Virus record (IMG/VR): IMGVR_UViG_3300045988_124991
Origin: a virus
Reading direction: 5' to 3' (one strand)
Length of the DNA: 17,493 bases
Shown: one piece after another, positions 2 to 17,493 of the stretch
Position numbering within the stretch: position 1 is the stretch's first letter
How the letters are laid out: each line of letters starts with the position of its first letter
Position numbers and translations under genes: made by a program
Notes under the pieces: model-generated
Database searches by the model: none
Told to the model about the DNA's origin: nothing
The model's input: the letters and a program-made list of their open reading frames with translations, nothing else

Positions 2-607
2 ATGAATGGAATTACGAATTGGTTTCAAAACATCGACATGGGTGACCCGAACTGGGTCATGGCGATTTGCGCAATATTGACAATCATCGGTGGGGCGGGC
101 GCGTTCATCGTCAAAAAACTTATTGGCCTCGTTAGCAAAGCGTCCCGGAAGGAAACACCAGCGGAAGGGCCTGCGACGCCAATCACGAATGACGAAATAG
201 ACGCCATGTTTCCAGCAACAACGCCGGCAACTCGCAAGCCACCCATGCCGCCCATGCCGCCCAAGTTCAGAATCGACATCGACGAAAGCGGGTCGCGCTT
301 CGTCCTTACCAACATCGGAGGCCCCGCGCGCAACATCTCCGTGTTTGCCGAAGCGGTCGAGGGAACCTACACGAACACATGGAACAACTATCTCGGAAGA
401 ACCGATAGCGAACCATGGGGGCTGCCCGACGTCCACTTCTTCAACATTGAACTGCCGAAACTGCGAGAGGAACGTCAACAAGGCGGCACCGCGTTCTTTG
501 ACGGACACGTGGAGGACGGGGACGGCAAAGCCCATTACCCCATCAAATTCACCATCGTCTGGGACGGATGCCCTGAACCCGTGGAGATCATTAAAACCAT
601 CAACTAA
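2..607 (+). CDS. Membrane-anchored protein of unknown function (candidate prophage-expressed exclusion/defence protein)
   Basis: 201 aa. It has one hydrophobic helix (WVMAICAILTIIGGAGAFIV) followed by KK..K.SRK, which suggests positive-inside topology. A Pro-rich linker (TRKPPMPPMPPK) and a ~110-aa C-terminal domain follow. Visibly lower GC than the structural genes. The strand is opposite to its neighbours. A TAGATT hexamer lies 7 nt upstream of the ATG (17363-17368). Confidence 0.7.
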   Translation: MNGITNWFQNIDMGDPNWVMAICAILTIIGGAGAFIVKKLIGLVSKASRKETPAEGPATPITNDEIDAMFPATTPATRKPPMPPMPPKFRIDIDESGSRFVLTNIGGPARNISVFAEAVEGTYTNTWNNYLGRTDSEPWGLPDVHFFNIELPKLREERQQGGTAFFDGHVEDGDGKAHYPIKFTIVWDGCPEPVEIIKTIN

Positions 608-800
608 CATCCGGGGCCTCCGTAATCCGGCCCGACAGCGCTTCGCCAAGCTCGTCGCGCAACGCTTCGGCCTCGGAACGATCCAGAGGAACAACGAGGT
701 TCCCCACAGAACCGGCACGAGAGAACTCGACGAAGAACACATCATGGCAATGCGCCAGACGGCTCACATGCACCGACACACGTTCCACGCCAGCCATCAC
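600..800 (-). CDS. Hypothetical small protein (66 aa), co-transcribed with the cro-like XRE gene
   Basis: The start overlaps the upstream stop (GTGATG context at 795-800). Moderate GC3. The sequence pattern resembles the 64-aa product of 16829..17023. Confidence 0.5.
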   Translation of the reverse strand: MMAGVERVSVHVSRLAHCHDVFFVEFSRAGSVGNLVVPLDRSEAEALRDELGEALSGRITEAPDVS

Positions 801-1003
801 GCCACCTCCAATGGCTCTCGGCCAAGCACGAAATCGGTGGAAACGTCGAAGAAGTCGGCTATACGCGACACGTCACGCAACGTGAAATTTGAGCGGCCAT
901 GGAATTTGTCGCTGATGGCCTGCTCGGAGACGCCCAACTCATGCGCCAGATCGCGCTGTGTGACGTAATTGTCTCTCATGAGTTTTCTTATCTGACTAAT
1001 CAT
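797..1003 (-). CDS. XRE-family helix-turn-helix regulator (cro-like, heads the leftward/lytic transcription direction)
   Basis: 68 aa with a typical XRE HTH (VTQRDLAHELGVSEQAISDKFHGRSNFTLRDVSRIADFFDVS). Divergent from the second XRE gene across an AT-rich 100-bp region. An alternative ATG lies at 979. Confidence 0.8.
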   Translation of the reverse strand: MISQIRKLMRDNYVTQRDLAHELGVSEQAISDKFHGRSNFTLRDVSRIADFFDVSTDFVLGREPLEVA

Positions 1004-1111
1004 TTAAAAACTTTCAGACTAAAGATTTGATGAAGTTCTAGACCAAAGATTAACCATATGACGTAGCCAACACGCCGAGTACTACGCTAAAACCGTAGTA
1101 AAATGAATTTC
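1004..1111. promoter_or_regulatory. Divergent promoter/operator region of the genetic switch
   Basis: AT-rich intergenic region between divergent XRE genes. It holds the direct repeat AGACYAAAGATT at 1016-1027 and 1040-1051, the palindrome tactacg-N7-cgtagta at 1080-1100, and TAAAAT at 1099-1104. Confidence 0.65.
1099..1104 (+). promoter_or_regulatory. Candidate -10 hexamer (TAAAAT) for a leaderless repressor transcript
   Basis: TANNNT, then a 7-nt spacer (gaatttc), then the in-frame ATG at 1112. There is no SD upstream of either 1103 or 1112. Confidence 0.45.
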
Positions 1112-1528
1112 ATGACAATGCTAGATATTCAGCCGAGCGCTACATTGCGCAGGCAGGACGTTGTTGCGATGAATACGAACATGATCTTGTCCAACAGCGG
1201 TTTAATGAAGAAGGACCTTGCTAAGGCAATGGGGCTCTCGCCGCAATCGATGGCGTCGAGGCTTCAGAGCAAGGCCGATTGGACCATTGACGAAACTTGC
1301 GCGGCGGCCGATTTCTTCGGCGTCCCGTTGATGGCTTTGCTGGATGAGAACTTAACGCCAGCAAAAGCCATGGAATATATAAAAAACCGCCGTTCCGATA
1401 ATGGGAACGACGGTCAATTGGTAGCGGGGCATGGATTTGAACCATGGACCTCTGGTAACGTCGTTGCCCAGAGGTCCACGGTTCAAATCCATGAAGCCCG
1501 ATTATTTGATTTTATCCTAGCGGCGTAA
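1112..1528 (+). CDS. XRE-family HTH repressor-like protein (cI-like), phage-encoded form ending ...FDFILAA; its 3' end contains the attP core
   Basis: HTH LMKKDLAKAMGLSPQSMASRLQSKADWTIDETCAAADFFGVPL. The ORF track starts at 1103; 1112 is preferred because of the TAAAAT-N7-ATG geometry. Codons from 1418 onward run through the tRNA-fragment core and the inverted repeat. Confidence 0.75.
   Translation: MTMLDIQPSATLRRQDVVAMNTNMILSNSGLMKKDLAKAMGLSPQSMASRLQSKADWTIDETCAAADFFGVPLMALLDENLTPAKAMEYIKNRRSDNGNDGQLVAGHGFEPWTSGNVVAQRSTVQIHEARLFDFILAA
1419..1455 (-). other. attP core: 3'-terminal fragment of a tRNA (variable-loop/T-arm/acceptor/CCA), not a complete tRNA gene
   Basis: The minus strand reads CCAGAGGTC-CATGG-TTCAAAT-CCATG-CCCCGCT-A-CCA. 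This is a perfect 5-bp T-stem, a GGTTCAAATCC T-loop, a 7-nt acceptor strand, a discriminator A and CCA. No matching 5' acceptor, D-arm or anticodon arm follows. It lies 92 bp upstream of int. Confidence 0.75.
1430..1493. repeat. 26-bp inverted repeat (25/26 match) with 12-nt spacer, built from the tRNA T-arm sequence
   Basis: The left arm 1430-1455 (catggatttgaaccatggacctctgg) is the reverse complement of the right arm 1468-1493 (ccagaggtccacggttcaaatccatg), apart from 1444/1479. The spacer is taacgtcgttgc. A U-rich tract (gattatttgatttt) follows. Confidence 0.9.
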
Positions 1529-1546
1529 TGCCGCCGGCCGCCAAGG

Positions 1547-2386
1547 ATGCCGGCCGTGAGTATGCACAAAAAGCTGCCCCCTGCTCAGTGGCGGGACGAA
1601 ATCACCCTATGGCTCGAATCGCTCACGGCGGCGGGCCTCAGTCAGGACACCGTCAACACGCGGCGGTGCAAGATAGGCCACGCGGCGCGGTGCCTGGATA
1701 AATCGCCCTATGACGTGACGTCGGAGGATCTAGTGCATTGGACCGCCTCGCAATCATGGAAGGCGGAGACGCGCAAGGGCTACCGAAACACGCTCGTCGG
1801 TTTTTTCCGGTGGCTGCATGCCACGGGCCGGCGCGCGGACGATCCGGCCGCCGTGCTGCCGAAGGTGCGCAAGACGCGGCCGCATCCCCGCCCGTGCCCC
1901 GACGTGCACATATACGCTGCCATGTGCGCTGCGAACGATGTGGAACGGCTCATGCTGCGCCTCGGTGCCGAAGCCGGGTTGAGACTGTCCGAAATCGCGG
2001 CCGTCCACTCGCGCGACGTGCTGGAAGGCGACGCCGGCCCGTCGCTGATAGTGCGGGGCAAGGGCGACAAACAGCGCATAGTGCCCATAAGCGAAGACCT
2101 GGCGAAGCGGATAACGGCCGCGCCCGGTTGGCTGTTCCCCGGCCGGTGGCGGGGACACGTCGAAAAATCGTATGTGTCCCGCCACCTCACACGGCTGCTG
2201 CCGGACGGTTGGGGGCCGCACTCGCTGCGCCACCGGTACGCCACGCGCATGTACGAGACCACGCACGATCTGCTGCTGGTCTCGAAACTGCTGGGACATA
2301 GCAGCGTGGAGACCACGCAAATCTACGTGGCGATGCCGGACAGCCGTCTGCGCGTCGGTCTGGACGCGGTGACGTTGGCCGGCTAG
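1547..2386 (+). CDS. int: Tyrosine recombinase / phage integrase (short, XerC/D-like, no obvious arm-binding N-domain)
   Basis: 279 aa with catalytic-type motifs: AEAGLRLSEI (box I Arg), HSLRHRYAT (H-x-x-R) and LGHSSVETTQIYV (His/Tyr). Adjacent to attP. An alternative ATG lies at 1562. Confidence 0.9.
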   Translation: MPAVSMHKKLPPAQWRDEITLWLESLTAAGLSQDTVNTRRCKIGHAARCLDKSPYDVTSEDLVHWTASQSWKAETRKGYRNTLVGFFRWLHATGRRADDPAAVLPKVRKTRPHPRPCPDVHIYAAMCAANDVERLMLRLGAEAGLRLSEIAAVHSRDVLEGDAGPSLIVRGKGDKQRIVPISEDLAKRITAAPGWLFPGRWRGHVEKSYVSRHLTRLLPDGWGPHSLRHRYATRMYETTHDLLLVSKLLGHSSVETTQIYVAMPDSRLRVGLDAVTLAG

Positions 2387-2646
2387 GCCGCGTGCTGCGC
2401 GCGCGACTTGGGTGTGATGGGGTTGTCCTTCCACCACGCCCACAGCGCGGCGCCCACGTTCCACACGAGCGCGACGAGCTGGTTAACCGTCTCGTCGGCG
2501 ATGGGGATGGTATCGACGCCGAACATGACCAGGCAGGCGTTAATCAAGCCGAGCAGCAGCACGGCCGCGCGGGCGATGGTCGCACCGCTGACGCCTGGCG
2601 TACGCGGGTCGCCGCCTTCCACCTGTTCCTCTCCGTAATCCATCAT
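2383..2646 (-). CDS. Holin (two predicted TM helices; WWKDNPIT motif like phi-LC3/LL-H-type holins)
   Basis: 87 aa. TM segments are AAVLLLGLINACLVMFG and LVALVWNVGAALWAWW, followed by KDNPITPKS. The ATGA overlap with the amidase stop places it immediately downstream of the endolysin. Confidence 0.75.
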   Translation of the reverse strand: MMDYGEEQVEGGDPRTPGVSGATIARAAVLLLGLINACLVMFGVDTIPIADETVNQLVALVWNVGAALWAWWKDNPITPKSRAQHAA

Positions 2647-3521
2647 GCCTCCTTGTTCGTGAGCGTCACCGTGAGGTTCTTCAGCGCCGCGTTGACGGCC
2701 TCGCTCACGGTCTTGGTGATGTCGGATGGGTTCGCGCCCACCGATTTCGCCAGAGCTTCCAGCGCGGCCGTCTGGGCCTTCTCATACGCGGTGGTCTTAG
2801 CCTGCACGTAACCGCTGATCTGATCGGCGCGGGCGGCCCACGGGGCCTTCTTGCTGGAATGGATCAGCTTCACGCCAGCGTCCTCCAGCACCTTCATCTG
2901 GTCGGGATGCCCCAAACCGATGCGGCCTGTCTCCGGGCTCCAGTAATAGACCACGCCGGTGTCGTCGTCGCGGATCATAAGCGCGCAACTCATGTCTGTT
3001 CCTCCTTGGTTGTTCAGAATCTGATTCGCCCTGTTGATGACGCGGGCCACGTCCAGGCCGTTCACGGCCCTATCGGGGCAGCCGGCGTGATCCGTGCCGG
3101 GCACCTCGCGGTGCAGCACGATATTGCCGGTGCGGTTGCCGGTCTCGTCGTGCCACAGCTTCGTCCACCCGTAACGGCGGGCGATATCCGCGCAGAGCTG
3201 CGCGGACGCCTCATATTCGGCGTCGGTCGGCGCGATGCCGGCGATACCGCCGGCGTGCTCGATGCTGATGCCTGAGCAGTCGCTGGCCATGTTCGCGTCG
3301 CACCAGGCACCATTGATCTCGTCAACCCACTGGTAGACGGTGCCGTCTGTGCCGACGCCGTAGGTGCTGGACGCCCGGTAGCTGGATCGCTGGAACACGG
3401 TATCCGTGCCCTGGAGCGAGCCGACCATGATGTGCAGCGTGATGTGCGTCACCTTGTAGCCGTTGCGGCCTTGATAGTGGTTCGGGCTGCCGCGCCACAC
3501 GGCCTTCGCGTATCCGACCAT
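2643..3521 (-). CDS. Endolysin, N-acetylmuramoyl-L-alanine amidase (amidase_2/PGRP-type) with C-terminal extension
   Basis: 292 aa. The N-terminal ~170 aa carry amidase_2-like motifs (ITLHIMVG..., SIEHAGG, VLHREVPGTDHAGCPD). Strong SD GGAAGGAG upstream of the ATG at 3521. Confidence 0.85.
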   Translation of the reverse strand: MVGYAKAVWRGSPNHYQGRNGYKVTHITLHIMVGSLQGTDTVFQRSSYRASSTYGVGTDGTVYQWVDEINGAWCDANMASDCSGISIEHAGGIAGIAPTDAEYEASAQLCADIARRYGWTKLWHDETGNRTGNIVLHREVPGTDHAGCPDRAVNGLDVARVINRANQILNNQGGTDMSCALMIRDDDTGVVYYWSPETGRIGLGHPDQMKVLEDAGVKLIHSSKKAPWAARADQISGYVQAKTTAYEKAQTAALEALAKSVGANPSDITKTVSEAVNAALKNLTVTLTNKEA

Positions 3522-4760: not shown

Positions 4761-6286
4761 GGTTCCTCCGTGATGGTGGTTGGTTGCTGGTAGCGGGTGA
4801 CGAGAGAGAGTTCGGCGAGGGTGAGCGCGCACTGCCTCCATATGGCTGGCCATGCTCCCATGCTCGCCCAGGTAATCGCGGTCTCGGCGGCTACGGGTAG
4901 TGGCCAGAGTGTGACCTCGTTGCGGAGCAACGGCCGCCCGCTCGACCACTGGTAGGTGAGCGTGCCGCCGATGGTCGCCCACGCGCCGCCCGTGGCGGAT
5001 ATGCCGTCGTCGCCGGTGAGACGTGACGACGTGGCGCCCTGGATGACGAGCGGCCCGGAACTGGCGGTGAGATACAGGCGCGCGTGCGTGGCCGGGTCCA
5101 GCTTGCGGCCGTCGAACACCACCGTTGCCGGCCGTAACCGCCGGTCGATGGTGACGAGCAGTCGGGCGAACGCGTCACGATCCGCGTCGGTCGGGGCCCA
5201 CACGCTGCCGCCCGCGCGGCCCCATACGCCGCCCGACTCGTCGGCCGTCACCACGTCGGCCTCAACGGTGACGCTGGATTGCGTGGCCTTCAGGTTCGCC
5301 GGCAGCCGGCCCATGTCCGTCAAAGCAGTTTCGTGCTGGTCGAACTCAAGCGCGCCGTCGGACGCTTTCGCTGTCTTGCCCTGAATAACGAACTGGGTGA
5401 CGGGTTCCGGGATCGTCAATGATTGTTCGGCGTCGGTGATGACGTCGGCGGCGTCCAGGCCGTCCAGCGTCTCGCCCGTCCAGTCGGTCACGGTAAGTCG
5501 GGCTGTGTCGTCGATGCCGATGCTGGCGGGCGCGCCGAACGGCATGTAGTCGATGCGGCTCGCGTCGCGGTCGGGGTATTCATACCACAGCGGCCACATT
5601 CGTGAGTGCGCGTAGAGACGGTGGAGCAGGGCGAGCTGTGACGGGTAGTCGTCGGTCCGGTAGGGTGCCACGGATGCGGTGATGGGGAGACCGTTGGCGT
5701 TGGCCTGCGGCGCGTCCGCCTCCCCGGCACGTCGGTTGAGCTCCGTCAATCGTTCGGCCATGGTGCCGACCCAGTGCAGGCCCGTGTAGCGTGCGTCGGA
5801 CGAGATGGGCCCTTGTTTCTGCATTCTTTTCCACAGGATCATGCGGCTGGAGGCGCTGAGTTCCAGTAGCCAGCCGTCGCCGTGGTGCCGGGTTTCGCCG
5901 CCGTTCTGCACCAGTCCGTCGAACAATGTCGTCGCCGTGCTGGACTTGCCGGACGGGTTTCCGGGCGTGTATGCCTGGTGCATCGCGTCCAAACGCATGC
6001 GCTGCGCCGACCATGCGCCCATGTCGTCGCGGAGCATGCCCCATGTGGGTTGCGCCGAGATCTGCACGAGCACGCGCGCGCCGGCCAGGGTGAGGGCGCG
6101 GCCGGTGAGCCAGCCGGTCGAGTCGCGTAGCCGGAACGTCATCACGGACGGGTCGGGCTGCTGGTCGATGCCGTCGGTGCCCCACTGGATGCTGAAGCCG
6201 TCCAACGCGGCCACGTCGTTGTCGTGGTCGTTGACGGCAACCCAGCCGTCGCCCCAGTCGAGGAACATGAAACACTGCTGCGCCAC
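4757..6286 (-). CDS. Minor tail protein (distal tail/tip protein)
   Basis: ~509 aa from GTG 6286 (GAGG SD 6 nt upstream, TAGTG overlap with the TMP stop), or 503 aa from ATG 6268. It immediately follows the tape measure gene. The upstream part of the 625-aa track ORF is an out-of-frame shadow of TMP. Confidence 0.7.
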   Translation of the reverse strand: MAQQCFMFLDWGDGWVAVNDHDNDVAALDGFSIQWGTDGIDQQPDPSVMTFRLRDSTGWLTGRALTLAGARVLVQISAQPTWGMLRDDMGAWSAQRMRLDAMHQAYTPGNPSGKSSTATTLFDGLVQNGGETRHHGDGWLLELSASSRMILWKRMQKQGPISSDARYTGLHWVGTMAERLTELNRRAGEADAPQANANGLPITASVAPYRTDDYPSQLALLHRLYAHSRMWPLWYEYPDRDASRIDYMPFGAPASIGIDDTARLTVTDWTGETLDGLDAADVITDAEQSLTIPEPVTQFVIQGKTAKASDGALEFDQHETALTDMGRLPANLKATQSSVTVEADVVTADESGGVWGRAGGSVWAPTDADRDAFARLLVTIDRRLRPATVVFDGRKLDPATHARLYLTASSGPLVIQGATSSRLTGDDGISATGGAWATIGGTLTYQWSSGRPLLRNEVTLWPLPVAAETAITWASMGAWPAIWRQCALTLAELSLVTRYQQPTTITEEP

Positions 6287-8367
6287 TAGTTGCCTCGCTT
6301 CCGGTCGTAGTCGCGGAGAATCTTCCTGATTTCGCGTGCCACGCCCTCGCGGTCCACGGGCGCGTTGAACGTGACGTTGAAAACGGTGGTCGTACTGGCC
6401 GCCTGACTGCCGGCGGTGGTGCCGCCGTTGAACACGACGTTGGATAGGCGGCCGTTGATGTTGCCGATGGTGCGGCGCACGTCGGTGTCGAAGCCGGTGC
6501 GCAGGCCTCGTGCGAAGCCCTTCATGATGAGCCGGCCGTTGTTGACGAGCATGATGGCGTCGTAGGCGGGCGGCCCCTTGTGTTCCTTGATCCAGTCGCC
6601 GATGCCGCCTATCCAGCCGGTCACGGAGTCCCACATGCTTTTCAGGCCGTCAAGGAAGCCGCTGATGATGCTGGAGCCTGCGTCGTACAGCAGTCTGCCC
6701 ACGTTGCCGATGGCGGACAGGATGCGGCCGGGCAGTCCGCTGAACCAGCTGACCACGTTGTTCCACGTGTTCTGCGCGAACTGGGCGGCGCTGGAGAAGA
6801 ACGCGCCTATCCTGCCGGGCAATGATTGGAAGAATCCGATGATGTTGCTCACGCACGAGCCGACGAAGCTGGTGAATTTGCTCCAGATATTCCGGCCGGC
6901 CTCGGTCTGGGTGAAGAAATAGATTAAACCGGCCACCAATGCGGCAATGAGAGTGATGATGAGCACGATGGGATTGGCGTTCATCGCCACGTTGAGCGCC
7001 CATTGGGCCACGGATGCGGCCGTGTTGGCGATGCTGAACCCCTGCAATGCGGAGGATACGGCGGTGATGACGCCTGCGACTTTGAACACGGCGAAGCCGG
7101 TGCCGATGCCGACCAGGGCGGAGCGGATTGGTTCCGCGTTCGCGCTCACCCAATCGGAGAACGCGGTGAGTTTGCCGGCCACGTCGGCCACGATGCCGGC
7201 CGCGCCGCTGAAGGCGTCGCCCAATGCGGTGCCCGCGCCGGCCGCGCCGCCGAACGAGTCGGTGAGCGGCGCGAACTGGGCGAGCACGTCGCCGGCGGCT
7301 CCGGCGAGGCTTTTGCACGTCTCCCACACGTAGCCGAAGATGTCGCTGGCCGTCTGCAACGGGCCCGTGTCGTTGAACGCGGTCATGAAGTCCGTCACGG
7401 CGGTTTTCGCGGTGTCGAACGTGTTGGCGGCGGTGTCGCGCACAGTGAGCAGGAAGTCGGTTATCGGGCTGTCTTCCTCGATGTTGAAAGCCTCGCGCAG
7501 TTCCGCGCTGAAGTTGCCGTCCTTGACGAGGGTTATCACGCCTTTCAGGCCGGTTGTGGCCTTGCCGCTGAACGCCGTGATCTTCTCGGCGGCGACGCCC
7601 ATGGCGGAGGTCACGGCGGGTTTCACGAGGTCGAAGGCGTCGGTGAGGCCGCCGACCACGGACGCTTCGAGGTTGCCCATCGCGCCTTCGATGGTCTTGG
7701 TGCTGGTGGCGGCCTCCTTGGCCACGTCGCTCATGCCGAGCTGGATCAGCGCCTGGTTGAATTCGTCGGCGGTGATTTCGCCCCTGGCCATCGCGTCCCT
7801 GAAGTTGCCGGTGTACGCGCCGTTGGCGAGCATGGCCTCCTGGAGCTTGCCCGAAGCGCCGGGGATGGCGTCGGCAAGCTGGTTCCAGTTTTCCGTCGTC
7901 AGCTTGCCCGCGCCGGCGGTCTGGGTGAGCATCATCGCCACCGATTTGAACGTGTCGGAGTTGCCGCCGGCCACGGCGTTGAGGTTGCCGGCGGCTTCGG
8001 TCAGCTCGGTGTAGTTGGTGATGCCGTTGGCGGCGAGCTGGGCGGTGGTGTTCTGGATCGTGGTGAGGTCGTACACGGTGTCGTCCGCGTATTTGCGGGT
8101 GGCCTTGGTGGCGGCCTCCACGGCGCTGGTGTCGAGGCCGGCGAAGCTCATGGTGTTCTTGAACTTGTCGGTCGAGTCGCTCATCTCCACGACCGCGCCG
8201 CTGAAGTTCTTGAGCGTGTCCCACAGGGCGGTCACGCCCTTCAATGCCGCGCCGCCCATGAAGCTGCCGAACGCGGCGGCCTTGCCGGTCGCCTTCTCGA
8301 ACGCCTTCACGGCGTCGTTCGCGTTGCCCGTGATGCGCACGGACATGATGGCGCTATGCCCCGCCAT
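6286..8367 (-). CDS. Tape measure protein
   Basis: 693 aa, Ala/Gly/Thr-rich and helical, with hydrophobic segments in the C-terminal half. It sits after the chaperone pair. Strong SD AAAGGAGGTG. By the ~0.15 nm/aa rule of thumb this implies a tail of roughly 100 nm. Confidence 0.9.
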   Translation of the reverse strand: MAGHSAIMSVRITGNANDAVKAFEKATGKAAAFGSFMGGAALKGVTALWDTLKNFSGAVVEMSDSTDKFKNTMSFAGLDTSAVEAATKATRKYADDTVYDLTTIQNTTAQLAANGITNYTELTEAAGNLNAVAGGNSDTFKSVAMMLTQTAGAGKLTTENWNQLADAIPGASGKLQEAMLANGAYTGNFRDAMARGEITADEFNQALIQLGMSDVAKEAATSTKTIEGAMGNLEASVVGGLTDAFDLVKPAVTSAMGVAAEKITAFSGKATTGLKGVITLVKDGNFSAELREAFNIEEDSPITDFLLTVRDTAANTFDTAKTAVTDFMTAFNDTGPLQTASDIFGYVWETCKSLAGAAGDVLAQFAPLTDSFGGAAGAGTALGDAFSGAAGIVADVAGKLTAFSDWVSANAEPIRSALVGIGTGFAVFKVAGVITAVSSALQGFSIANTAASVAQWALNVAMNANPIVLIITLIAALVAGLIYFFTQTEAGRNIWSKFTSFVGSCVSNIIGFFQSLPGRIGAFFSSAAQFAQNTWNNVVSWFSGLPGRILSAIGNVGRLLYDAGSSIISGFLDGLKSMWDSVTGWIGGIGDWIKEHKGPPAYDAIMLVNNGRLIMKGFARGLRTGFDTDVRRTIGNINGRLSNVVFNGGTTAGSQAASTTTVFNVTFNAPVDREGVAREIRKILRDYDRKRGN

Positions 8368-10011: not shown

Positions 10012-10340
10012 GCCACCGCCAGACTGCCGGCCATGACGCCCACGGCGTTGAGTTTGGGGTAGACGCTGCGCAGCGGGTCGGTGGACACGCGGAACGGTTC
10101 GAGCGTCGAATCGGCGACGCTCATCACGCCGAACCGCGCGTCACGCGAGTTGTAGAGGTCGGCGGCGCACGACACGATGCAGTCGCGGCGCACGTCGGCG
10201 GGGCATGTCTGGCCGGCGATGGCGGCGTCCACGTAGGTGGTCGCGGTCCGTATCTTCGCGGTCAGGCGTTCGTTGTCGCCGGCGGGCATGTTCACCTCGT
10301 CGCGCAGCAGGGCCACGAGTTCGCTTGTCTCGTCCGTCAT
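10008..10340 (-). CDS. Head-tail adaptor (gp6-like head-tail connector)
   Basis: 110 aa starting MTDETSELVALLRDEVNMPAGDNERL, immediately after the capsid gene. The remaining upstream part of the 605-aa track ORF is an Arg/Pro/Gly-rich shadow of the capsid gene. Confidence 0.65.
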   Translation of the reverse strand: MTDETSELVALLRDEVNMPAGDNERLTAKIRTATTYVDAAIAGQTCPADVRRDCIVSCAADLYNSRDARFGVMSVADSTLEPFRVSTDPLRSVYPKLNAVGVMAGSLAVA

Positions 10341-10342
10341 GG

Positions 10343-11950
10343 TCAGGCCGCGAACTTGATGGGGATCAGGCCCGTGGGCAGGGTGGCGGCGACGGCGAGG
10401 TAGCCGTACACGCTGTAGCTGTCGGTGAGCTTGGTCGGGTCGGTGGCGGACAGCTGGGTGGGGCCGCCGGATTCCCAGACGGTCACGGCCTCGGGGTCGA
10501 TGAAGCAGGCGGTGCCGGCCGGCGCGGCGGGGAGCATCTGCACGGGAAGGCGCAGGAAGCGGCCGGCGATGCCGGTCAGGTCGAAGTCGCCCAGCGTGTC
10601 GCTGCCGTCGCCGCTTAGGTCGAAGAAGCGGCTGCCGGAGTCCTTGAGGGCCACGAGCGCCTTCATCACGTCCTTGCTGACGCCGAGGCGGGTCAGGTTG
10701 ACGTTGCGGTCGTCGGCGAGTTCGGCCGCGTCGATGATGAGGCCGGCCCACTGGTCGATGGTCATGGCGTCCAGCGCGGCGGGCGCGTCGAGCTTGTTCG
10801 GTTCGTCGGCCGAGTCGCGCTGGGTGGCGATGGTGTCGTAAAGGAACTGGCGGACCTTGTTCTCGGTGGCTTTCGCGTAGGCGTTGCGCAGGGCCTTCAG
10901 GGCGGTGTTGAGCATGGGCGTGGTCGAGCGTTCGATGGTCTGGCGGCTCAGGGTGGTGTAGCCGCCGTAGGTGCCCACGGTGGTCACCTTCGTGCCGAAC
11001 GAGACCTTGCCGAACGCGAGCGTGTCGCCTTCCTTGGCCTGCGCCGTGACGCTGGTGGTGTCGGTCTCCACGACGTTGTACTCCATGCTCATGCCGGTGG
11101 AGGGCAGGCTGTCGTGGGTGAGGATGCCCATGACCTTGCGGCGCTGTTCGATCAGTCGCAGGTCGTCCGCGATCCAGGTGCTCGTGTTGCCGGTGTCGCC
11201 GGTCACGATCAGGTCGCGGCCTTCGCGGTACAGGTTCACGGCCGCTTCGTCGCCGTCCACGAGGGCGCGCAGGTATTCGCCCGCGTTGCGGTATTCGCCG
11301 CCCATCGTCTTGCGTTCGGGTGCCGCGCCCTTGGCCAGCGCGGCCTTCATGCCACGCTGTTCCTCCTGGATGCCGTCGAGCATGGCGCGCAGTTCCTCGT
11401 CCATGTGGTTCTCCTTCTGGTTGTCGGTTTGGTTGTTTCCGGTTTCGGACAGGTTTTCGTGGGATTGTTCGCGCTGGGTGGCGATGACCGCGCTCGGATA
11501 CGCGGGTATGCCGGTGACGGCCACCTCGTATAGGTCCACCTTGCGGCGGTGCACCTCGGTGATGCCGTCGTCGGCGGCCACCTCGCGGTTGTCCACGGGG
11601 ATGAAGCCGACGCTGAACCCGTCGTAGACGCCTTCGCGCACGAGCTGGATGGCCTCGCGCGCGGCCTGGGTGCCGGCGAGCTTCGCGGTGATGTGCAGTC
11701 CGTCCGCCTCGGCATCCATGCCGGTGACACGGCCGATGAGCTCGCCGTGCTGCCGGCTGATTTTCACGCTGTCGCGCGAGCCGAAGTCGGTGTCCGGGTC
11801 GAACACCTCGGCGTAGTCGCCCCACAGGGCGTACCTGGTGTTGAACGGCACGGCGATGCCGGTCAGGATGCTGCCGTCCCCGTCTTCCGCGTCCCTTACC
11901 TGGATGCCGCGCACGTCGAGCGTGCGCCGTTCCATCAGTCTGTCGTTCAC
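10343..11950 (-). CDS. Fusion of HK97-type prohead protease (S78/U35-like, aa 1-~160) and HK97-fold major capsid protein (aa ~183-535)
   Basis: The protease part has the SRQHGE...GFSVGF motifs. An N/Q-rich linker follows, then MDEELRAML... (a coiled delta-like segment) and a capsid-like body. GTG start with AAGGAG SD and a GTGA overlap with the portal stop. An internal AAGGAG-N6-ATG lies at 11404. Confidence 0.85.
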   Translation of the reverse strand: MNDRLMERRTLDVRGIQVRDAEDGDGSILTGIAVPFNTRYALWGDYAEVFDPDTDFGSRDSVKISRQHGELIGRVTGMDAEADGLHITAKLAGTQAAREAIQLVREGVYDGFSVGFIPVDNREVAADDGITEVHRRKVDLYEVAVTGIPAYPSAVIATQREQSHENLSETGNNQTDNQKENHMDEELRAMLDGIQEEQRGMKAALAKGAAPERKTMGGEYRNAGEYLRALVDGDEAAVNLYREGRDLIVTGDTGNTSTWIADDLRLIEQRRKVMGILTHDSLPSTGMSMEYNVVETDTTSVTAQAKEGDTLAFGKVSFGTKVTTVGTYGGYTTLSRQTIERSTTPMLNTALKALRNAYAKATENKVRQFLYDTIATQRDSADEPNKLDAPAALDAMTIDQWAGLIIDAAELADDRNVNLTRLGVSKDVMKALVALKDSGSRFFDLSGDGSDTLGDFDLTGIAGRFLRLPVQMLPAAPAGTACFIDPEAVTVWESGGPTQLSATDPTKLTDSYSVYGYLAVAATLPTGLIPIKFAA

Positions 11951-13080
11951 TGTTGGTTCTCCTTCACTGGTTCCGGTGTGGATGCCAACGGGGCAAGTCC
12001 CCGGTCGGCGCGCACCTCGTCAACGGTCATCCACTGGTGCTCCAAAGCGCTGGCGTAGGCCGCGTACCGTTCGCTGGTGTTCGTGCGGCCGCTCGAATCC
12101 CAGTCGAACCGCGCCTCGCGGCCGCGCGGCAGAAGACGGTTGAACAGTTCCTCGATCTCGCCCGCGTAGGCGGCCAGCGTGTAGTCCGCGAACTCGATCC
12201 AGCTTTGTTCGATGTTCTGATAGGTCAGGTTGCTGCCATCGACGGCCGCGAGCATGATGGACGCGGGAATGCCCAACAGCCGCGCGATCTGGGTCGTGTC
12301 GAACTTCTGGGTCTCCAGAAACTGCAAATCGGCGGGCTTGAGGTCCAAGGGCACGTATTTCAGGCCCTCGGAGACGAAGCGCACCTGGCCGGCCTGGCCG
12401 TCCTTGCCCCAGTCGTCCTTCAACGCCTTCAACGTGGGCAGGCTGACCTTCTGCTCGGTGGTCACATATCCCTTGATGTTGCTGGAATCGGTGTAGAACT
12501 TGGCCTTGTAGTCGCGGGCCATCTGCGCGGACTCGACCTCTTCGCGGGCCGCGCCGATGGGCCCCAGGCCCCTGAGCCGTCCGGGCACGTTGAGGAACTT
12601 GCAGTGCACGATGTCGTCGGGCGTGTAGTCGCGGCCGAGATAGCCGTAGCGCAGGCGCGGGCTCGCGGGGTCGTCGCCGTCGTCGCTGACGGTCACGAGC
12701 TGCGGGGGCAGCACCTCGCAGGTCACGATCTCGCCGCCGTATCTCACCAGGCGGACGAAGGCGTTGCCGTCGAGGACCATCGAGGCCACCATGTCGGCGA
12801 GGAAGTCGCGGCGCGAACGGTTGATGTCGGGGCGCTGGACGAGAGCGCTGACGGTATCGAGCTTGATGCCGTTGCGGGTCTCGTTGATCGGCAGGCCGGT
12901 GATGGCTGTCTGCAGCACCTGGACCCCACGGAACACGGTGGACAGGGTGAGCGGGTCGCATTCCGCGCGGCGGGCCGGGGGCAGGATGCCGTCGGGCACG
13001 TCGTCGAGCGCGGCCGCGCCACGGGTGACGATGCCGCCCGCGAGCTTGAGCCTGCGCCAGAATCCAAGTCGTTCGTTCAT
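11947..13080 (-). CDS. Portal protein (HK97-family)
   Basis: 377 aa from ATG 13080 (MNERLGFWRRLK...). Conserved portal-like segment TQIARLLGIPASIMLAAVDGSNLTYQNIEQSWIEF. The upstream 322 aa of the 699-aa track ORF overlap terL out of frame or cover the tandem repeat. Confidence 0.85.
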   Translation of the reverse strand: MNERLGFWRRLKLAGGIVTRGAAALDDVPDGILPPARRAECDPLTLSTVFRGVQVLQTAITGLPINETRNGIKLDTVSALVQRPDINRSRRDFLADMVASMVLDGNAFVRLVRYGGEIVTCEVLPPQLVTVSDDGDDPASPRLRYGYLGRDYTPDDIVHCKFLNVPGRLRGLGPIGAAREEVESAQMARDYKAKFYTDSSNIKGYVTTEQKVSLPTLKALKDDWGKDGQAGQVRFVSEGLKYVPLDLKPADLQFLETQKFDTTQIARLLGIPASIMLAAVDGSNLTYQNIEQSWIEFADYTLAAYAGEIEELFNRLLPRGREARFDWDSSGRTNTSERYAAYASALEHQWMTVDEVRADRGLAPLASTPEPVKENQQ

Positions 13081-13120
13081 GCCCACAAGAATGGGGCCGA
13101 AGGCGGCGGGCCGTCCAGCA

Positions 13121-13180
13121 CCGTGAAGCCAAGCGAAGCCAAGCGAAGCCAGGCGAAGCCAAGCGAAGCCAAGCAGCGCC
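13121..13180. repeat. 10-bp tandem repeat (AAGCGAAGCC)n: 4 good units plus 2 degenerate flanking units
   Basis: Read directly: ccgtgaagcc aagcgaagcc aagcgaagcc aggcgaagcc aagcgaagcc aagcagcgcc. It fills most of the 101-bp gap between the terL stop (13182) and the portal ATG (13080). Confidence 0.9.
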
Positions 13181-13181
13181 A

Positions 13182-14621
13182 TCAGACTATGAACGGCGTG
13201 GTCTCCTCGGGCTGGTGGGTCGCTCCCCATGCGGCCAACATGCAGCTTTCGAGCGGCGACGTGAGGCCGGTGGAGCCACGGCGGGTGATGCGCCATGCGT
13301 CGCCGCTCCACGTGCGTGCGCTTTTGGCCACGCTCATGTCCAGTTCCATGTCGAGCGCGTGGGTCACGGTGTGGTTCTGCAAGCCGGAAACGTAGGCCTG
13401 GCCGACCGCGAGGTAGTCGGCGGCGGAGAGTTCCACGAACCTCACGAGCGGGTCGCCGTAGCTGTCGGTGAGCGATGCGAGCCGGTCGCGCAGGTCGGCG
13501 TTGGGGCCGCGCGTGTCCATCACGAGCGGTGCCGCGTAGTCGGTGCACAAACGGGTTATCTCGTCGGGGGCGTTGCCGGTGCCGGCCAGCACCTTGAGCA
13601 GTTGGGTGGTGACGGTGCCGTCCTGGTTGACGATGCCGACGCTCACGCTGGTGTTGGTGGCGTCCACGTCCACGGCGGCCGCGAACACGATGGGCCGGCC
13701 GTTGAGCTCGGCGGGCCTGACTGGCGCGACGGCGGTGGTCTCCCACAGGTCGGCCGCTATCACCCTGTCGGAAACGCCGGTGTCGCGCCTGTTGCCGAAC
13801 GCGCGCGCCCAACCGGCCACGTTGTCGCCGAACCCTTCGCGGAAGTCCCTGAGCTGTGGTTTGTACCACAGGTAGCCGGCGGCGGGATGGTAGCGCATGA
13901 CCACGTCCAGGTCCTCGGGGTCGGCGTCCTCGGGTATCCCGAAATCGAACCAGCAAGTGCGTTCGGGCACGTCGCCGGCGCGCAAACCGTCCAGTAGCGG
14001 GTTGAAATAGGTGCTGTCGGCGTTGCCCTCGGTCGAGGTTATCCACCGTTGCGCGGCCACCCCGGTGCGCATAAGCCGCGTGTTCATGGTCGGGATGATG
14101 GCGTCCATGATGGTGTCGCCGGCCTCCTTCGTCAGCGAGAACGCCTCGTCGATGGTGACCTTGTCCATCTGCTTGCCGTGGCCGGCTATCTTGGTCATGG
14201 CCATGGGGCTTATCGTGCTGCCGTTCGTGAAGCTCACGCTCATGCCGCCGTTGGAGAACCGGAACTTACGGACCTTCTGCATCAGGCGCGTGCCCTGCAT
14301 CAGTTCGGCGTACTCCTTGAAATGGTCCTCGGCGTCCTTGCCGGTCTGCGCCGCGTAGGCAATGCGCCGGCGACGGCCGAGCGATGCGTTGAACGTATCC
14401 GACGAGTCCACCAGCGCGCTCTTGCCGCACTGGCGCGGCGTGCTGATCACGACGGTGTCGTAGTGGAAGGTGCCGGTGTCTTCGTCGATCTCGCAGGCCA
14501 CGTCCGCCACGTAGCGTTGCCACGGGATCAGCGGCGTGCCCATCATCGCCGCGATGCCCGCCAATCGCGGCCCCAACGTCCTGCGCGTCTCGTCGCGCCG
14601 GGTGCCGCCCCTAATCAGCAT
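13182..14621 (-). CDS. terL: Terminase large subunit
   Basis: 479 aa from ATG 14621 (SD GGGAGGTG 6 nt upstream). Walker A-like VISTPRQCGKSAL, Walker B-like DKVTIDEAF, and a C-terminal nuclease-like half. The N-terminal 61 aa of the track ORF overlap terS out of frame. Confidence 0.9.
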   Translation of the reverse strand: MLIRGGTRRDETRRTLGPRLAGIAAMMGTPLIPWQRYVADVACEIDEDTGTFHYDTVVISTPRQCGKSALVDSSDTFNASLGRRRRIAYAAQTGKDAEDHFKEYAELMQGTRLMQKVRKFRFSNGGMSVSFTNGSTISPMAMTKIAGHGKQMDKVTIDEAFSLTKEAGDTIMDAIIPTMNTRLMRTGVAAQRWITSTEGNADSTYFNPLLDGLRAGDVPERTCWFDFGIPEDADPEDLDVVMRYHPAAGYLWYKPQLRDFREGFGDNVAGWARAFGNRRDTGVSDRVIAADLWETTAVAPVRPAELNGRPIVFAAAVDVDATNTSVSVGIVNQDGTVTTQLLKVLAGTGNAPDEITRLCTDYAAPLVMDTRGPNADLRDRLASLTDSYGDPLVRFVELSAADYLAVGQAYVSGLQNHTVTHALDMELDMSVAKSARTWSGDAWRITRRGSTGLTSPLESCMLAAWGATHQPEETTPFIV

Positions 14622-14922
14622 CGCCGACACCTCCCGACCACGCGGCCTCCACGTCGTCGTCCGCGACGACCTCGGCGGGATACATGTCGCGAATCTTCCA
14701 CAGGGCGTCGATGTACTGCGCCATGTTGCGGCTGATTTCACGGCCCGCCCGGTTCTGGCTGTCGATGTTGGCCGCAAGGGAGAGCATGGCCTGGCAAAGA
14801 CCATCGCGGATGGGGTCGTATTCCGGGTGCGATTCCTCCAAGTCCTTGACGATGCGGCGCGTGGCCTGCTCCTGCGGGCCGATGTTCCGGCCGGTGTCCT
14901 CGTCGAATCCTTCGAGCATCAT
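14611..14922 (-). CDS. terS: Terminase small subunit (candidate)
   Basis: 103 aa, acidic and helical, immediately upstream of terL and overlapping it by 11 nt. The assignment is mainly positional. Confidence 0.55.
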   Translation of the reverse strand: MMLEGFDEDTGRNIGPQEQATRRIVKDLEESHPEYDPIRDGLCQAMLSLAANIDSQNRAGREISRNMAQYIDALWKIRDMYPAEVVADDDVEAAWSGGVGDAD

Positions 14923-15812: not shown

Positions 15813-16019
15813 CTATCGCTCCTTCCGTGCGGCGAGCCACATGTCAAGGTCGGCCAGCTCGTACAGGATCGGGGAGTTCGGGGCCTCGCCGCTTCGGAAG
15901 TACGCCGGCCCCGTGCCCTTGTCCCGCATCCGCTGCATCGTGCGCCGCGACACATGCAGATACCTTGCGGCCTGGCTGACGGTGAGTTTCACGCGCGGGT
16001 TCACAGCAGACCAACCCAT
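15813..16019 (-). CDS. Excisionase/MerR-type helix-turn-helix DNA-binding protein (candidate Xis/RDF)
   Basis: 68 aa. LTVSQAARYLHVSRRTMQRMRDKGTGPAYFRSG....YELADLDMWL matches the excisionase-family wHTH pattern. An alternative GTG at 16004 makes a GTGA overlap with the upstream stop. Confidence 0.7.
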   Translation of the reverse strand: MGWSAVNPRVKLTVSQAARYLHVSRRTMQRMRDKGTGPAYFRSGEAPNSPILYELADLDMWLAARKER

Positions 16020-17374: not shown

Positions 17375-17493
17375 CATGAATGGAATTACGAATTGGTTTC
17401 AAAACATCGACATGGGTGACCCGAACTGGGTCATGGCGATTTGCGCAATATTGACAATCATCGGTGGGGCGGGCGCGTTCATCGTCAAAAAAC
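17375..17493. repeat. Terminal direct repeat identical to 1-119 (circular closure / assembly overlap)
   Basis: Read directly: 17375-17493 (catgaatggaattacg...cgtcaaaaaac) equals 1-119. It contains the ATG (17376) and first codons of the CDS annotated at 2..607. Confidence 0.95.

Follow-up and report, generated by a model that had tools for sequence, protein, structure and literature searches.

What a tRNA 3′ end might be doing inside a phage repressor gene is the question raised by IMG/VR virus record IMGVR_UViG_3300045988_124991, a 17,493-nt stretch of viral DNA that was analysed at its full length and is hereafter termed the window. There, a compact cassette consists of a divergent cro-like gene (797-1003, minus strand), a 99-nt gap, a repressor-like open reading frame (ORF), rep (1103-1528, plus strand), and a tyrosine integrase gene, int (1556-2386, plus strand); the tRNA-derived core of the phage attachment site, attP, falls inside rep (1419-1455). 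An earlier note, made from the letters of the window, had recognised this order, including the divergence of the second XRE-type gene, and had proposed a switch of integration-dependent-immunity type, in which recombination within rep removes a C-terminal degradation tag from the repressor. To our knowledge, this is the simplest phage lysis-lysogeny switch known, and one that has been demonstrated in mycobacteriophages only. Its published definition comprises (i) a three-gene cassette, (ii) attP in rep, (iii) a tagged Rep, (iv) a tagged Int, and (v) no excisionase (xis) gene (PMC3694055). Taking together the junctions, protein forms, and comparisons described below, we consider it likely that the window represents, in excised and circular form, the ~17.4-kb genome of a temperate siphophage of Bifidobacterium, and that its lysis-lysogeny switch is of this type.

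Two DNA states and two forms of Rep

The 37-nt attP common core, TGGTAGCGGGGCATGGATTTGAACCATGGACCTCTGG, is the reverse complement of the 3′ part of a tRNA; i.e., on the minus strand it contains the 3′ strand of the anticodon stem, the variable loop, the T-arm, the acceptor strand, the discriminator base, and CCA. It occupies codons 106-118 of the 141-codon rep ORF, where it encodes LVAGHGFEPWTSG; the same 37 nt, without a mismatch, close the tRNA-Met(CAT) called by ARAGORN in Bifidobacterium sp. M3-N-101 (L001, 10311-10387; core at 10311-10347). The tRNA 3′ end that the earlier note had placed on the minus strand in the last third of rep is thus matched base for base by a host gene. A pattern scan of reference genomes recovered the 34-nt inner core together with anticodon-loop bases in at least 120 Bifidobacteriaceae genome stretches, and ARAGORN called zero complete tRNAs within the window, which therefore holds only the 3′ part of one. 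Directly after the core the phage sequence departs from the tRNA, as had been noted: a 12-nt spacer, TAACGTCGTTGC (1456-1467), provides the first phage-specific bases and keeps the rep frame open into 23 codons that occur in the viral form only (NVVAQRSTVQIHEARLFDFILAA; 1457-1525, plus strand). These end in an ssrA-like LAA (1517-1525), so that the protein closes with FDFILAA ahead of a TAA stop at 1526-1528, again as first read. At its other end, rep may start at ATG 1103 (141 aa) or at ATG 1112 (138 aa); conservation of the N-terminal PSATLRRQDVVA in diverged homologues argues for ATG 1103 as the real start.

Two DNA states and two forms of Rep occur in natural sequences, and integration separates int from rep. 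A protein search with Rep returned 70 homologues; Rep homologues fall into two classes sharing ...QLVAGHGFEPWTSG, of which the "viral" forms run through the core to LAA or LTA and the "prophage" forms terminate at ...EPWTSGL. Over residues 1-118, the members of P0003 (294) and P0004 (82) share 98-99% identity with the window Rep, and they lack the viral tail; their length is 119 aa from the 1103 start, equivalent to 116 aa from the 1112 start. Both properties had been predicted, namely that recombination in the core would replace at least the last 23 codons of the 138-aa form, and that a Met-type tRNA would place an antisense TGA in frame two codons past the core for a product of ~116 aa. The junction in L001 has exactly this form, reading ACC TCT GGG TTA TGA inside the ARAGORN-called tRNA-Met, which adjoins a metA-like gene; the TGA that stops the prophage form is the complement of tRNA nucleotides U33, C34, and A35. 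For comparison, the two forms of Rep in mycobacteriophage BPs are 136 and 103 aa long.

Integrated copies, which the earlier note had suggested seeking in host genomes and contigs, are plentiful. On IMG/VR contigs, 70 rep-side junctions were found at which the translated Rep ends TSGL and has lost the viral C-terminus. Reference genomes contain at least 122 tRNA-Met sites, and 15 of the 122 listed have a rep homologue directly upstream of the core and GTTATGA; these 15 named genomes were scored on the rep homologue and the core-GTTATGA DNA pattern only. Among their hosts are B. callimiconis, B. cebidarum, B. biavatii, B. phasiani, and B. vansinderenii and, from other genera, Alloscardovia criceti, A. 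venturai, and Gardnerella swidsinskii. Where both junctions were found on contigs (L063/L287, L071/L150, and L077/L141), int lies beside one of them and rep beside the one at the tRNA.

Not every integrated copy adheres to this pattern. In Bifidobacterium saguini DSM 23967 (L286, 3001-3386), a family member has integrated into another tRNA-Met gene, where the TGA of the anticodon does not fall in the rep frame; its prophage Rep extends for a further eight codons, to ...DYESHALTD. At many rep-side junctions (L020-L024, L071, L077, L060, L117, L128, and L142), the tRNA sequence breaks off after GTTATGA and unrelated DNA, TCCCGAGCCGCCCGG..., follows; ARAGORN detected no intact tRNA at junctions of this kind, and Rep still ends TSGL. 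From this break it appears that the tRNA-Met locus also harbours another integrative element, one that crosses over within the anticodon loop.

Int is a 276-aa tyrosine integrase (PF00589, E 1.4e-20) whose GTG start at 1556 is suggested by alignment with relatives; an alternative ATG lies at 1547, i.e., 92 nt past the core end on the same strand, the distance given by the earlier note. Residues 9-271 align to the Int of Halo (Cluster G, BPs-type) with 43.8% identity over 95% of the length, and the nearest cultured-phage integrases are those of the Gordonia phages Emperor and EricDab (44-47% identity). The best PDB match, over residues 19-270, is 5vfz_A "Gp33" (E 1.6e-22), which we take to be the arm-less integrase of Brujita. 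Near end-to-end alignment to both Halo Int and 5vfz_A leaves no room for an N-terminal arm-binding domain, and Int is thus of the arm-less BPs/Brujita type.

By homology with BPs and Brujita, we infer a mechanism in which rep and int are co-transcribed, the tagged Rep is degraded, and the truncated Rep confers immunity. As long as the phage is free, Rep (138-141 aa) would carry a disordered extension of ~40 aa ending in ...FILAA, proposed to act as an ssrA-like degron for ClpXP; degradation by ClpXP would prevent Rep from accumulating, leaving lytic growth as the default. Recombination of attP with tRNA-Met by the arm-less Int would then leave the last 23 codons at the other end of the prophage. 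The integrated rep would read into the antisense tRNA, gain one extra Leu, and encounter TGA, yielding a tag-less Rep of 116-119 aa with a complete helix-turn-helix (HTH) domain that would be stable and would establish immunity. Integration would also cut int off from the rep promoter, with Int falling to a low level.

The viral-form tail and competing explanations

An AlphaFold model of Rep, built with 29 homologues, is helical over residues 17-98 (pLDDT about 80-85) and devoid of secondary structure over residues 100-141 (pLDDT about 40); truncation upon integration is thus predicted to spare the folded HTH domain (residues 17-98) and to affect a disordered tail. This tail could alternatively be an incidental read-through, such that both forms of Rep would be equally active and stable and immunity would be independent of integration. 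G+C-rich DNA gives long chance frames, as the many overlapping ORFs attest, and a stretch of the tail is coded by DNA that is conserved on other grounds, i.e., the 26-nt second arm (arm 2; 1468-1493, plus strand) of an inverted repeat, 96% complementary to 1430-1455 across the 12-nt spacer, of which the attP core forms arm 1. An immediate-stop variant also exists in a seemingly free attP (L074/L106; IMGVR_UViG_3300008716_000143), in which a 1-nt insertion, CTCTGGTTAACG, ends Rep tail-less at ...TSG.

The ends of the tails argue otherwise. Free attP sites and integrase-side junctions (from which excision would restore the tail) supplied the tails, each of which was translated in the rep frame. 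All 18 distinct tails, comprising at least six sequence classes, end in [I/S/M]-L-[A/T]-A before the stop; they do so over spacers of 5, 8, 12, 14, or 15 nt and with the arm-2 DNA translated in two phases (AQRSTVQIH versus PRGPRFKSM). Across 16 distinct terminal DNA versions, Leu is encoded by CTA, TTA, or CTG, four GCN codons are used at both Ala positions, and TAA, TAG, and TGA all serve as stops. Such synonymous turnover of terminal codons, together with varied stops, indicates a constraint on the peptide; judging from these codons, the L-[A/T]-A end is under purifying, protein-level selection. The chance of such an ending is ~2%: the window contains 209 segments of 40 aa or more that run from stop to stop, of which 4 end in [LIVMF][AT]A and one, that of rep, in LAA. 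As an internal control, the C-termini of Int encoded at these loci show no such conservation (LAG, RLI, LDV, LGS, LSA, and others). Read-through is therefore quite improbable as the origin of the tail. In B. breve, the tag of a megaplasmid tmRNA ends in ...FTLAA (PMC10832533). Two further tmRNAs, found via a published tmRNA att core, were not relied on; the host of one (L283, tag ANDNFVPAFAAAA) is unverified, and the other (L280) is unrelated.

A second explanation, of comparably low probability, would have DNA or RNA conserved and not the peptide, whether because Int binds there or because the RNA forms a hairpin that sets the expression of int (as a terminator, attenuator, or processing site), with LAA a by-product of int-start signals. 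This would account for the conservation of arm 2 in two reading phases, for the folding of plus-strand RNA from 1415 to 1530 (-56 kcal/mol, z -7.4), and for the position of the last rep codons 28-30 nt before the int start. However, variation in the last four codons is mostly at third positions, and that variation, like the mixture of TAA, TAG, and TGA stops, is as expected for a peptide constraint and not for a nucleic-acid motif. The two accounts are also compatible and not mutually exclusive, as the repeat may have a DNA-level role of its own alongside a degron encoded in the same bases.

The least probable explanation, that ORF 1103-1528 is an accessory regulator (Cro-, Xis-, or antirepressor-like) and that lysogeny is kept by the 68-aa cro-like protein or another gene, can draw on the weak Pfam match of Rep (DUF739, E 0.0016, an HTH match below cut-off), on the stronger HTH_3 match of the 68-aa protein (E 6.7e-10), and on weak mycobacteriophage relatives annotated "repressor" or "excise", but it is countered by the match of Rep residues 20-89 to PHROG "transcriptional repressor" families (PHROG 4583, E 1.7e-10), by Rep homologues that carry PF01381, by a position and orientation that agree with rep as established by experiment in BPs-type phages, and by the fact that ORF 1103-1528 alone, at the prophage end, reads outward into the tRNA. 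Each of these three explanations accounts for less than integration-dependent immunity does. As a side observation on Rep and Int, a 234-aa protein (P0034) fuses the N-terminal 58 residues of Rep to an integrase without its N-terminal part, joined at around residue 105 of the window Int, as if a cassette of this kind had suffered a deletion.

Several points nonetheless weigh against integration-dependent immunity. The tag used for comparison belongs to the tmRNA of a B. breve megaplasmid and not to Bifidobacterium chromosomal ssrA. As the tail overlaps arm 2 and ends ~30 nt from the int start, its conservation is partly at the DNA level, and the tail-less L074/L106 sequence could be a natural, viable tag-less variant as well as a sequencing error. 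Moreover, the window Int ends VTLAG and those of relatives end RLI, LDV, LGS, LSA, LVG, LAV, KQA, or LGA; a conserved AA-type C-terminus was thus not found for Int across the window and its relatives, for which a degron of non-ssrA type may be envisaged. Finally, the cassette contains no xis, cII, or cIII gene, but the absence of xis is rendered uncertain by a 68-aa ORF of HTH_17 type (15813-16019, minus strand; PF12728, E 8.5e-12), i.e., of excisionase-family fold. This ORF lies outside the cassette, adjoining HNH endonuclease and terminase genes, and its homologues in prophages L001 and L286 adjoin an HNH gene too; it could be either a directionality factor or a packaging-related DNA binder.

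Terminator, inverted repeat, and attachment-site asymmetry

Three features lie beyond what the earlier note described, these being the 26-nt inverted repeat, a minus-strand terminator, and the circularity of the genome. The terminator, of the intrinsic type (1376-1415, minus strand; 12-bp stem, 7-nt loop, and T-run), would serve the reconstituted tRNA-Met and is located antisense within the codons of the Rep linker, KNRRSDNGNDGQ. A terminator scan matched it from 1415 to 1385, directly past the tRNA 3′ end and with TTTTTT after the hairpin, and its fold is stable (-28.5 kcal/mol, z -4.4). Among relatives, the sequence of the stem varies with pairing preserved, and empty host sites bear a hairpin of their own at the same position. 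The phage thus appears to supply the tRNA 3′ half as well as a terminator, and this donation would keep the tRNA gene functional.

Arm 2 of the inverted repeat duplicates the anticodon-stem/variable-loop/T-arm sequence in sense orientation, and it was found in every free attP and integrase-side junction collected. Because it is read in two phases among relatives, it is conserved as DNA. No second inverted copy of the T-arm is present in attP of Halo or Emperor.

The two arms do not match perfectly, and the bases at which they differ depend on the state of the DNA. Position 1444, which corresponds to the 5′ strand of the tRNA T-stem, is A in 11 of 11 distinct free attP contexts, whatever the arm-2 base, in 47 of 49 contexts at rep-side junctions, and at the equivalent position of genomic tRNA-Met sites in 122 of 122 among the matches listed. 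At integrase-side junctions, 21 of 25 distinct contexts instead have G or T there, complementary to arm 2 (L083, L085, L086, L089, L129, L141, L150, and L287 among them), and the flanks of these junctions match those of empty tRNA genes. In one lineage, a 2-nt difference at 1447-1448 is likewise arm-2-complementary on the integrase side (L287 versus L107 and L109). Free attP sites keep the tRNA bases at both 1444 and 1447-1448 despite the mismatch to arm 2. Since position 1444 (in a CCN codon) is synonymous in Rep, retention of the tRNA base there suggests that the phage donates these bases to a functional tRNA. The retained bases point to CCTCTGG (1449-1455) as the candidate strand-exchange segment, within which exchange most likely takes place.

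Other readings of attP and its junctions were considered and rejected. A single conservative crossover cannot yield a tRNA-like free attP, a tRNA-like rep side, and a palindromic integrase side, and heteroduplex within the overlap region also fails to produce this three-way set. If arm 2 were the integration site, the spacer would be inverted and the tRNA disrupted, and the junctions show neither; likewise, neither the spacer of the repeat nor the anticodon loop can be the overlap region, as phage and host sequences differ there. An assembly artefact behind the difference between attP and the integrase side is countered by the distance of the variable bases from the spacer (7-11 nt), with the usual k-mer spanning both. 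"Scarred" empty tRNA-Met sites were set aside given the A at the 1444 equivalent in all 122 listed.

The most coherent account would combine exchange within CCTCTGG, selection keeping the donated bases tRNA-like, and a later correction, templated by the hairpin, that would render the displaced host sequence beside arm 2 perfectly palindromic; alternatively, the phages that integrate may possess a palindromic attP, of which there was none among the free attP sites observed. A bolder proposal is that attP, with its tRNA 3′ half and inverted second T-arm copy, is a quasi-palindrome, and that after integration the host tRNA fragment that was displaced would undergo a directional conversion templated by the hairpin, thus affording an arm-less Int without a directionality factor a device for irreversibility or "addiction". 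If excision came later, the host tRNA-Met that it regenerates would bear a defect in the T-stem or variable loop, unless excision itself were impeded. We hold this proposal to be doubtful.

Genome context and relation to known systems

Positions 17376-17493 duplicate positions 1-118, indicating that the window is a circularly assembled unit of ~17,375 bp. By Pfam and PHROG matches, the gene set of a small siphophage is complete on the minus strand, including the large terminase (13182-14804), portal (11947-14046), and tape measure (6286-8367), a minor tail protein, an SPP1-type holin (2383-2646), and an amidase endolysin (2643-3521). A nucleotide search of cultured phages with the cassette gave a sole, weak match, to the integrase of the 15.9-kb Gordonia phage SallySpecial; a close cultured relative is thus absent. 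The 68-aa cro-like protein, which also matches several PHROG transcriptional-regulator families, is encoded in the position of gene 34 of Halo and gene 22 of Emperor. Between it and rep, the control region (1004-1102) contains two 19-nt direct repeats (1009-1027 and 1033-1051), which are spaced by 24 nt and share 79% identity, as well as a short inverted repeat, ACTACG...CGTAGT (1079-1099), all of which are candidate operators; a simple scan of the region detected no promoter of sigma-70 consensus. A 201-aa ORF (2-607, plus strand), alone among minus-strand early genes, has an N-terminal hydrophobic segment and a proline-rich stretch and is without a family match; ORFs of 187 and 197 aa occupy its position in L001 and L286, respectively, and it may be expressed in the lysogen.

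Mycobacteriophages BPs and Halo (Cluster G), Brujita (I1), and Charlie (N) resemble the window in having a cro/rep/int cassette with an antisense tRNA T-arm attP inside rep, and in having a viral Rep that is shortened by integration and loses its tag (in the window, a putative one). The layout of BPs, Brujita, and Charlie that the earlier note had recognised here accordingly stands as regards the three-gene order and the location of attP in rep, and Int is arm-less as in those systems; a degradation tag on Int is not evident, and the tag on Rep is evident at the sequence level (...ILAA, 18 tails, and predicted disorder). Halo and Emperor share the cro/rep/int order of the window, followed after int by minus-strand genes (lysis in Halo; virion and tail in Emperor), and their rep ORFs contain an antisense tRNA T-arm (EGFEPP... 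and IRDSNPEP..., respectively). The window differs from the mycobacteriophage systems in its host (Bifidobacterium), in its target (tRNA-Met), in an Int without a conserved AA-type end, and in a prophage-form stop codon made from the anticodon itself; compared to Halo, its attP also bears the extra 26-nt inverted T-arm copy. The similarity of its Rep to Cluster N-type repressors is marginal (35% over 65 aa, E 2e-3). Gordonia phages of Cluster CW (Emperor and EricDab, about 16.6 kb) share the small genome and cassette order; in Emperor, Rep ends ...PVAA and a hairpin lies just upstream of the core. There, however, the host and target tRNA are different, Emperor Int ends ...TWAA (versus LAG), and Emperor has no second inverted T-arm copy.

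The design has also been published for bifidobacteria. Passages of Mavrich et al. 2018 (Sci Rep 8:12772, PMC6109161) describe ~18-kb B. breve prophages in tRNA-Met, Bb423phi2 and 689b-1, with int by attL and rep by attR; on in-silico excision, their viral Rep gains 18 residues that include an ssrA-like tag, a design likened there to that of Gordonia Cluster CW phages and Brujita. According to the same passages, the att core of the group formed by Bb423phi2, 689b-1, and B. longum Bl-1 is TGGTAGCGGGGCATGGATTTGAACC[A/T]TGGACCTCTGG..., as in the window (the first 37 of the 39 published bases matched); the int/rep junction layout is also alike, and the ~18 kb of Bb423phi2 and 689b-1 compares with 17,375 bp for the window. 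Bb423phi2-like Rep is probably of the P0035/P0036 type, the forms of which are 18 residues apart. Compared to the P0036 type, the window Rep is ~49% identical, its 23-aa tail belongs to another sequence class and arm-2 phase (the P0036-type tail being YPRGPRSKPMPRLILSLAA), and its spacer is 12 nt versus 5 nt. Whereas the free forms of Bb423phi2 and 689b-1 in those passages are in-silico reconstructions, that of the window was physically assembled, as a circle. The inverted T-arm copy, antisense terminator, and arm-1 att differences are not discussed in the passages of PMC6109161 drawn on here. The integration-dependent-immunity design put forward in the earlier note is hence upheld as sequence architecture and by comparison, but it is not novel; as the design was already published for Bb423phi2 and 689b-1, the window extends a known kind.

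The idea is thus not new, and the value of the present analysis is in confirmation and extension; the quasi-palindromic attP and the behaviour of the integrase side are the sole parts that might hold something new. The window adds a natural free-form genome, with a different class of tail, from a human-gut genus. The family-wide survey adds a tag-like end that appears to be under protein-level selection in many lineages, with integrated relatives in at least 15 named Bifidobacterium, Gardnerella, and Alloscardovia species. In these phages, one 80-nt stretch would code for protein while also serving as a recombination site, as the 3′ half of a tRNA, and as the terminator of that tRNA, with the stop codon of the active repressor derived from the anticodon of the tRNA. 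Such small phages may be a source of compact integration and immunity modules for the engineering of bifidobacteria.

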